Made by a program: the position numbers and the translations under genes
Notes under the pieces: generated by a model
The model's input: only the letters and a program-made list of their open reading frames with translations
Database searches by the model: none
Told to the model about the DNA's origin: nothing
In this document: positions 42,697-42,784 of the stretch, in pieces
Numbering within the stretch: the first letter of the stretch is position 1
How the letters are laid out: every line of letters starts with the position of its first letter
Source: Eledone cirrhosa
Lineage: Eukaryota
NCBI GenBank assembly: GCA_964016885.1
Contig: OZ024743.1
Location: forward strand, 272,614,001-272,678,000
Length of the DNA stretch: 64,000 bases
Direction of reading: 5' to 3'

Positions 42697-42784
42697 TCCT
42701 CGACTACGTAGTTTCGTGGCATAAAGAAAAACAATATATCAAAGATATAGAGTCCTTGCGAGGTCTGCCGACTTATCAAGAGGA
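42697..42784 (-). ncRNA. Type I hammerhead, U3-A8 core variant
   Basis: Minus strand: TCCTC-TTGATAA-GTCGGCA...TGCCAC-GAAA-CTACGTAG-TC^GAGGA. Predicted cut between 42702 and 42701. Confidence 0.8.

Follow-up and report, generated by a model that had tools for sequence, protein, structure and literature searches.

The DNA analysed here, referred to below as the window, is a stretch of 64 kb from Eledone cirrhosa (GCA_964016885.1, contig OZ024743.1, positions 272,614,001 to 272,678,000; coordinates are counted from its first base), and it carries four hammerhead motifs, all of which read TCCTC-TTGATAA-(57-59 nt)-GAAA-CTACGTAG-TC-GAGGA. A sequence-only reading had placed a hammerhead with the core UUGAUAA at 39562, 42697, 43286 and 63273, and all four copies were found again together with their stems. 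Copies 42697-42784 and 43286-43373 are adjoining units of one insertion, so the motifs belong to three independent insertions of a repeat that we describe below as a retrozyme. The relevant features, including parts of Penelope-like elements (PLEs), are listed here, with A and B denoting the two fixed 3' ends of the repeat.

39337-39727: insertion with two arms in (TA)n, one inverted (39337-39437, end B) and one in sense (39432-39727, end A)
39562-39651, plus strand: hammerhead copy of an intermediate subfamily, 94% identity to the 591-bp unit
42622-43835, minus strand: one-armed retrozyme insertion made up of two units of ~590 bp and a further 35 bp; it enters (TA)n at 3' end A
42697-42784, minus strand: type I hammerhead, the copy named in the sequence-only reading; motif match
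43286-43373, minus strand: second hammerhead of the tandem insertion, 589 bp upstream of the 42697-42784 copy in the RNA sense
44728-45518, minus strand: decayed fragment of a Hydra-like PLE, with young genomic relatives that have a 714-aa frame and no obvious hammerhead
63034-63979: insertion with two arms, one on the minus strand (63034-63575, end B) and one on the plus strand (63576-63979)
63273-63360, minus strand: fourth hammerhead copy; motif match
63980-64000, plus strand: start of a 5'-truncated Neptune-like PLE, continuing in L247:1481-3068

Elsewhere in the window, 48917-49636 (plus strand) holds a mariner-type transposase remnant (Pfam HTH_48), 53802-56443 (plus strand) a broken non-LTR retrotransposon with a weak RVT_1 match, and ~89-2900 and beyond an irregular tandem repeat with a 27-bp period. 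Fold-backs or long inverted repeats lie beside or inside (TA)n at 43821-44406, 37728-38409 and 32212-32911/36823-37522; they are possibly two-armed insertions of other non-coding elements.

Anatomy of the hammerhead motif

Positions 3 and 8 of the hammerhead core form a Watson-Crick pair, for which U3-A8 is an active exchange. In the copy at 42697-42784, stem I is UCCUC/GAGGA and the core runs U3 (42779)-U4-G5-A6-U7-A8 (42774)-A9, followed by a 57-nt helix II arm, G12-A13-A14, the palindromic helix III ACUACGUAGU, C17 and GAGGA; cleavage is predicted after the GUC triplet, between 42702 and 42701. Every core position except 3 and 8 is canonical in all four copies, as are G10.1-C11.1, GAAA and the GUC triplet. 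Around the core are an open stem I of 5 bp, a helix II base of 6 bp, and a helix III of 3 bp, or of 10 bp in a dimer. In the helix II arm the 6-bp base has a single bulged C and is followed by an internal loop and then by a rod of ~15 bp; the internal loop and rod stand in place of loop II, and no contact between loop I and loop II was identified. The stem II loop had been said to vary between copies, and differences do exist in the arm, but they are few (1-7 among the four copies), and the arm is 57-59 nt long instead of a short hairpin; a motif search with a 10-40 nt spacer, suited to a short hairpin as stem II, gave nothing. Genome-wide, the only common variant of the ribozyme scaffold changes the bulged C of the helix II base to U, and it marks a young subfamily (L119, L121, L123 and L124).

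A generic hammerhead regular expression applied to the window returned the four copies and four further matches without pairing stems. Rfam gave no hammerhead match at E≤10 on 42600-43850, likely owing to the long helix II combined with the core variant, and over the whole window only microsatellite-driven, miRNA-type matches were present among the best 150 of 267. The expectation that standard searches would miss this family holds, accordingly, for Rfam.

A family of 591-bp non-coding repeats

To place these motifs in the genome, we surveyed ~3.0 Gb in 1,796 contigs. The 18-mer ATCCTCTTGATAAGTCGG, from the 5' core, occurred 6,362 times and its reversed control 0 times, so the hammerheads form a family and are not chance matches; the 3' 15-mer of the motif occurred 8,132 times (control, 4), and both sets of matches were scattered over many contigs. 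The repeat unit is ~591 bp long, non-coding, with a GC content of 42%, and it recurs in tandem at a spacing of 589-597 bp, with one type I hammerhead per unit, in arrays of up to 7.6 units. Its only stop-to-stop frames are of 71-86 aa, and the two that were scanned had no Pfam match. The frame encoding reverse transcriptase (RT) and GIY-YIG domains of an autonomous PLE is absent from the unit, and no LTR-type structure was seen in maps of the insertions. The element is a non-LTR retrozyme and a new example of this class, whose core swap has itself already been described; in the literature searched, no paper on the 591-bp family came to light.

Fixation of U3-A8 within the family

Genome-wide, the core states of the family were 6,362 U3-A8, 8 C3-A8 and 0 C3-G8, so its consensus is UUGAUAA, as the sequence-only reading had proposed, and it is no dead offshoot of CUGAUGA. 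Position 8 was mutated in 14 copies (8 of them A>G), position 3 carried T>C in 8, and position 7, where the hammerhead tolerates any base, was mutated in 12 (7 of them T>C); the counts at positions 7 and 8 were indistinguishable (p=0.84). Relative to the free position 7, the family thus shows no depletion of copies mutated at 3 or 8 alone, which indicates that inserted copies decay neutrally, and 3-8 covariation inside the family was nil. Agreement among the four copies in the window, which had been read as a sign of selection, reflects only common descent, because the family is young and these copies have one recent ancestor.

An older subfamily, ~76% identical to the young one, was more informative. 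Thirty loci were fetched with a non-ribozyme query taken from one old copy, and 28 were used after the query locus (L135) and an overlapping one (L155) had been dropped. Among the copies from these loci that spanned the motif, U3 was present in 39/40 and A8 in 40/40. When the majority sequences of the old and young subfamilies were compared, a comparison of a single branch, 0/44 scaffold sites differed as opposed to 99/478 other sites (Fisher p=8e-5), and the helix II extension differed at 11/44 sites. The helix II rod was 87.5% paired in 24 hand-picked rows, with 9/15 pairs varying compatibly through wobble and compensatory changes, and its covariation score was reached by 2/500 shuffles, a control that ignores relatedness. 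The scaffold comparison, which rests on that one branch, speaks for purifying selection acting on a scaffold of ribozyme shape, U3 and A8 included. The U3-A8 pair originated once, before the oldest sampled subfamily, and has been retained since; it is a tolerated alternative core pair and brings no new chemistry.

The 3-8 pair in other repeat lineages

A generic descriptor, which counts some sites twice, matched 8,104 U3-A8 sites (control, 222) and 5,382 C3-G8 sites (control, 38) genome-wide. The larger U3-A8 count was not taken to mean that this state predominates in the genome, since the descriptor double-counts sites and misses both the C3-G8 hammerhead of a young PLE described below and hammerheads of other shapes. 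Its U3-A8 matches outside the 591-bp family represent at least four further families. One of these, with a unit of ~320 bp, contains both states of the pair: a C3-based pattern gave 81 C3-G8 and 19 C3-A8 among the best 100 of 122 matches, a U3-G8 pattern gave 20 matches, and C3-G8 and U3-A8 copies are 77-88% identical over up to 335 nt. In an unrooted tree of 32 rows, built with positions 3 and 8 masked, the C3-G8 copies formed one clade (99/96), and three C3-A8 rows were isolated tips found in both groups. Mismatch states occurred at scattered tips only, and compensatory changes were present in all three stems. Copies of this family (L207-L236 versus L179, L184, L187 and L190) have preferred ends at ~+131 and ~+167. 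In a second lineage, a U3-A8 family (L180, L186 and L245) is 65-68% identical over 230-280 nt to C3-G8 families (L238-L240 and L246).

As judged from these alignments and the tree, positions 3 and 8 change together, as one pair, in both lineages. Neither lineage has detectable homology to the 591-bp family, which had nothing in common with the seven other hammerhead families compared beyond microsatellite matches and a single short end motif rich in pyrimidines. Covariation of the pair, which the sequence-only reading proposed as a check, is missing inside the 591-bp family and present in these two other lineages; and the proposal that the double change is under selection draws its support from them and from the unchanged scaffold of the old branch, but not from the four-copy argument. 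For kinetic comparison, the ~320-bp lineage offers near-identical scaffolds that naturally carry either U3-A8 or C3-G8. A further abundant family (L183, L185, L192, L243 and L244) is hammerhead-like with U3-A8, an intact stem II and GAAAC-CG-GUC, and a poor stem I; its elements are rich in microsatellites and often inverted, and their topology may differ.

These observations bear on how hammerheads are counted, since a search for CUGANGA sees neither the more than 6,000 copies of the 591-bp family nor the ~8,100 sites that the descriptor matched in other U3-A8 families. Because U3-A8 copies are missed by such searches, and the 591-bp family by Rfam also, hammerhead censuses of genomes of this kind are undercounts.

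Structure of the insertions

We mapped 91 insertions at 90 loci, 3 of the insertions being cut by the edge of the locus. They were found within (TA)n, with 5' ends that vary and two fixed 3' ends, A at +80 nt and B at +243 nt from the cut site, 163 nt apart. Of 49 two-armed insertions, 43 had one A and one B end, 1 had two A ends and 5 had an irregular end; 37/39 one-armed insertions ended at A or B. Fixed ends, tandem and inverted arms and TA targets, features shared with the PLE insertions described in PMC8557442 and PMC11167929, point to a PLE footprint. Twin priming of the L1 type was considered and rejected, as one arm has its 5' end elsewhere than at the start site of the other.

Segments of one insertion diverged by 0.44-0.54%, in comparison with 2.8% between insertions. 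Private variants at 39 loci were found in one segment (64 variants) or in all (25, of which 15 spanned both arms), and never in some; at 81 loci, 96 were in one segment, 21 in all and 3 in some. The low divergence within insertions and the restriction of most private variants to one or all segments suggest that each insertion was made from one template. Templates with a damaged core have been copied at least once: L132 carries U3-G8 and L133 carries U3-U8, each in both tandem units, and a stem I mismatch in L096 is present in both arms. All ribozyme-bearing insertions read through the cut site. Homogeneous arrays of up to 7.6 units do arise, though most insertions hold fewer than 2.5.

A candidate helper element

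At the right-hand edge of the window, the plus arm 63576-63979 (unit positions ~42-444) enters a PLE reading frame directly, so that end A is never reached. The retrozyme arm is fused in sense to the truncated PLE frame at the junction 63979|63980 (unit position 444), at which no exact microhomology was found. The PLE part in L247:1481-3068 contains an RT thumb, a CxxxxCxxC linker, GIY-YIG and a 3' UTR with a C3-G8 minimal hammerhead, and it ends in (TA)n; its Pfam match is weak (E=0.0018). The retrozyme is not resumed beyond the junction, so one end of the insertion is the B end of a retrozyme and the other belongs to the PLE. Contigs bridging the junction were absent from the matches listed for four public runs. 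This structure fits a template switch within a single event, and also a subsequent insertion of the PLE that deleted target sequence.

The linker motif, as described in PMC8557442, suggests that the fused PLE is Neptune-like, an assignment made by this motif and not by a tree. The unit of its family is 4,253 bp long, with an open reading frame of ~1,270 aa and a minimal hammerhead of the C3-G8 type, and its two main ends lie ~60 nt apart. The family is young, as 150/150 scored matches were 99-100% identical; Pfam gave no match on the whole ~1,270-aa frame. Neptune-like PLE sequence was present in 20/121 retrozyme loci (2 of which were chosen for it, and some of the matches were short) versus 4/66 control loci, and it frequently shared a TA tract with the retrozyme. 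The retrozyme showed no significant homology to either of the two PLE families compared, the Neptune-like one and the 714-aa Hydra-like one. The Hydra-like PLE was set aside as a helper, since it has no sequence in common with the retrozyme, and 40 of its loci yielded no hammerhead that matches. The Neptune-like PLE is a candidate helper of the retrozyme.

Strand bias of inherited changes

Variants present in two or more loci have passed through RNA, and on the ribozyme strand these were A>G in 27 cases versus T>C in 11 when polarised by majority, and A>G in 27 versus T>C in 18 when polarised by the outgroup (39% expected, p=0.006). The A>G sites were enriched for U or A on the 5' side (22/27, p=0.015) and G on the 3' side (11/27, p=0.002), a pattern that the neighbour preference of ADAR resembles. 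There was no A>G excess among changes confined to one segment, and hence acquired after insertion (A>G 8 versus T>C 15), fixed differences were even (8 versus 8), and the old subfamily showed a weak trend (19 versus 14, p=0.05). A>G changes sit at paired sites and T>C (U>C) changes at unpaired sites, the distribution to be expected from selection on structure.

The bias gives a hint of A-to-I editing in the retrozyme RNA, and it could also be produced by selection on structure or by transcription-linked DNA repair. Hyper-edited genomic copies were not found among 278 segments, in which the maximum was 4 A>G changes. Two loci (L117 and L118) carry 3 A>G changes throughout all their units. In run X5, whose kind is unrecorded, a loose end of two contigs at L247:1480 consists of retrozyme sequence that differs by 7 T>C changes within 30 bases, which is the appearance expected of hyper-edited antisense RNA. 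It is conceivable, though we think it rather improbable, that U3-A8 is a mainstream core that flips to and from C3-G8 with the help of A-to-I edited circles reverse-transcribed by a Neptune-type PLE; a change of A8 to G would then give a U-G wobble as the step between the two pairs. Were this true, the 591-bp family and the candidate helper would be a ready pair for rebuilding the rolling-circle mobilisation of a retrozyme.

RNA folding and a proposed route of spread

In folding predictions, the active monomer fold lay 1.1 kcal/mol above the minimum free energy (P~0.015). For the tandem pair in the window (42697-42784 with 43286-43373), the palindromes are predicted to form the 10-bp helix III of a double hammerhead with P~0.74, and in the full-context fold stem I is predicted not to form (P<=0.01). 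The circular monomer folded at -167.6 kcal/mol, in comparison with -132+/-6 kcal/mol for 40 shuffles (z -5.8). A 621-nt contig in run X2 that closes the unit on itself, and a joint in run X6, were set aside as evidence for circles, since low-depth tandem DNA may give rise to them.

Our preferred reading, at a probability of about 0.72, is that the repeat is a type I hammerhead retrozyme with a U3-A8 core, the RNA of which would cut itself, mainly as a dimer, become circular and be copied into (TA)n by a PLE. A multimeric transcript would be cut at successive GUC sites, mainly when two copies are paired through the palindromic helix III, and unit-length RNA would be ligated into a circle. The PLE enzyme would nick both strands of (TA)n and begin copying at A and B, and rolling-circle copying of the circular template would generate the tandem arrays. 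A step from monomer to multimer appears to be needed because homogeneous arrays of up to 7.6 units recur though most insertions are shorter than 2.5 units.

Unlikely is the alternative that the hammerhead fold persists because it serves the helper enzyme as a structure or a site of protein binding, with cleavage slight or absent, uncut multimers as templates and no circle. Cleavage by the anole PLE requires protein, and its ribozyme-dead mutants still insert in vitro, undiminished and with unprocessed RNA as the main substrate (PMC11167929), while 8/9 frog retrozymes did not cleave in vitro (10.64898/2026.07.22.740005); insertion may here, too, use a linear multimer as template. The reading of every ribozyme-bearing insertion through the cut site, the copying of core-mutant templates (L132, L133 and L096) and the weakly populated active monomer fold agree with such a role. 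In contrast, the conserved sites are the catalytic ones, including a 3-8 pair that is formed only in the active state (PMC3884650), the pair switches as a unit in two lineages, and homogeneous arrays of up to 7.6 units with shared private variants need a monomer-to-multimer step.

It is also very unlikely that U3-A8 is a dead core carried by one successful master element, with fixation due to common descent. This would account for young copies that are 95-99% alike, for the neutral mutation rate at positions 3 and 8, and for the fact that no C3-G8 relative of the 591-bp family turned up. It does not sit well with a scaffold that has 0/44 changes on a branch where 21% of other sites changed, nor with at least four further U3-A8 families, of which the ~320-bp one has compensatory changes in three stems, nor with the reported activity of U3-A8 in vitro (PMC3088659). 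That DNA recombination spread the repeat as a satellite, its likeness to a hammerhead being incidental, can scarcely be credited. Head-to-tail tandems apart, the insertions are dispersed and short; they lie in (TA)n and combine 3' ends that are fixed with 5' ends that vary and with inverted arms, and the inherited changes are strand-biased as structure in the ribozyme-sense RNA predicts. Under the preferred reading of a self-cutting, circularised retrozyme, the fixed ends, the shared private variants and the fused PLE make PLE-driven, circle-templated spread testable with a named candidate enzyme.

Comparison with known systems

Natural U3-A8 covariation has been reported before, in several ribozymes called active in vitro and described as rare (PMC3088659, Perreault et al., 2011); the exchange is the same one, here fixed in more than 6,000 copies and found in several other families besides. 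Cervera and De la Pena (2014; PMC4209133) reported ~1,300 U3-A8 hammerheads in Schistosoma PLEs, missed there by the first descriptor used, and the cores in the supplement include UUGAUAA and UUGAAAA, with a C3-G8 counterpart from S. japonicum. Like the hammerheads of the Schistosoma mansoni Cercyon PLEs described in PMC4209133, those of the 591-bp family are of type I, with a U3-A8 core, a palindromic helix III and a link to PLEs, are missed by C3-G8 descriptors and exist in over a thousand genomic copies. Unlike them, the ribozyme here belongs to a non-coding tandem unit instead of a PLE pLTR, and its copies are homogeneous; comparison of the unit with two PLE families revealed no pLTR homology. 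The Schistosoma minimal hammerhead is described with an extra base between 9 and 10.1 and a helix II of 7-8 bp, whereas in the 591-bp family A9 is followed directly by G10.1, helix II is an arm of 57-62 nt, and helix III consists of 3 bp and a tetraloop.

Metazoan retrozymes were defined by Cervera and de la Pena (2020; PMC7229834), who proposed that the circles are copied by a PLE, and Li, Clavereau and Pollet (2026; 10.64898/2026.07.22.740005) argued that they derive from PLEs and observed cleavage in 1/9 tested. The 591-bp element resembles the non-LTR retrozymes of these accounts in its non-coding tandem structure, one type I hammerhead per unit, GC content below 50%, stable circular fold and co-occurrence with PLEs. 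It differs from them in its U3-A8 core and long helix II, and in the two fixed ends and inverted arms documented here; its unit exceeds the 150-450 bp given in the former account and falls within the 51-972 bp given in the latter.

The insertions, for their part, resemble those of anole PAc (PMC11167929) and of the Neptune, Hydra and Naiad PLEs (PMC8557442) in being tandem or inverted and in targeting (TA)n. The anole PLE is also described as having two RT start sites downstream of its hammerhead (PMC11167929), comparable with ends A and B here, although the two ends of the retrozyme are 163 nt apart, in comparison with 30-40 nt in the tail that is typical of PLEs and ~60 nt in the young PLE of this genome. 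Compared with an autonomous PLE, the retrozyme is an element without an RT or GIY-YIG frame of its own, and behaves like a passenger of PLEs.
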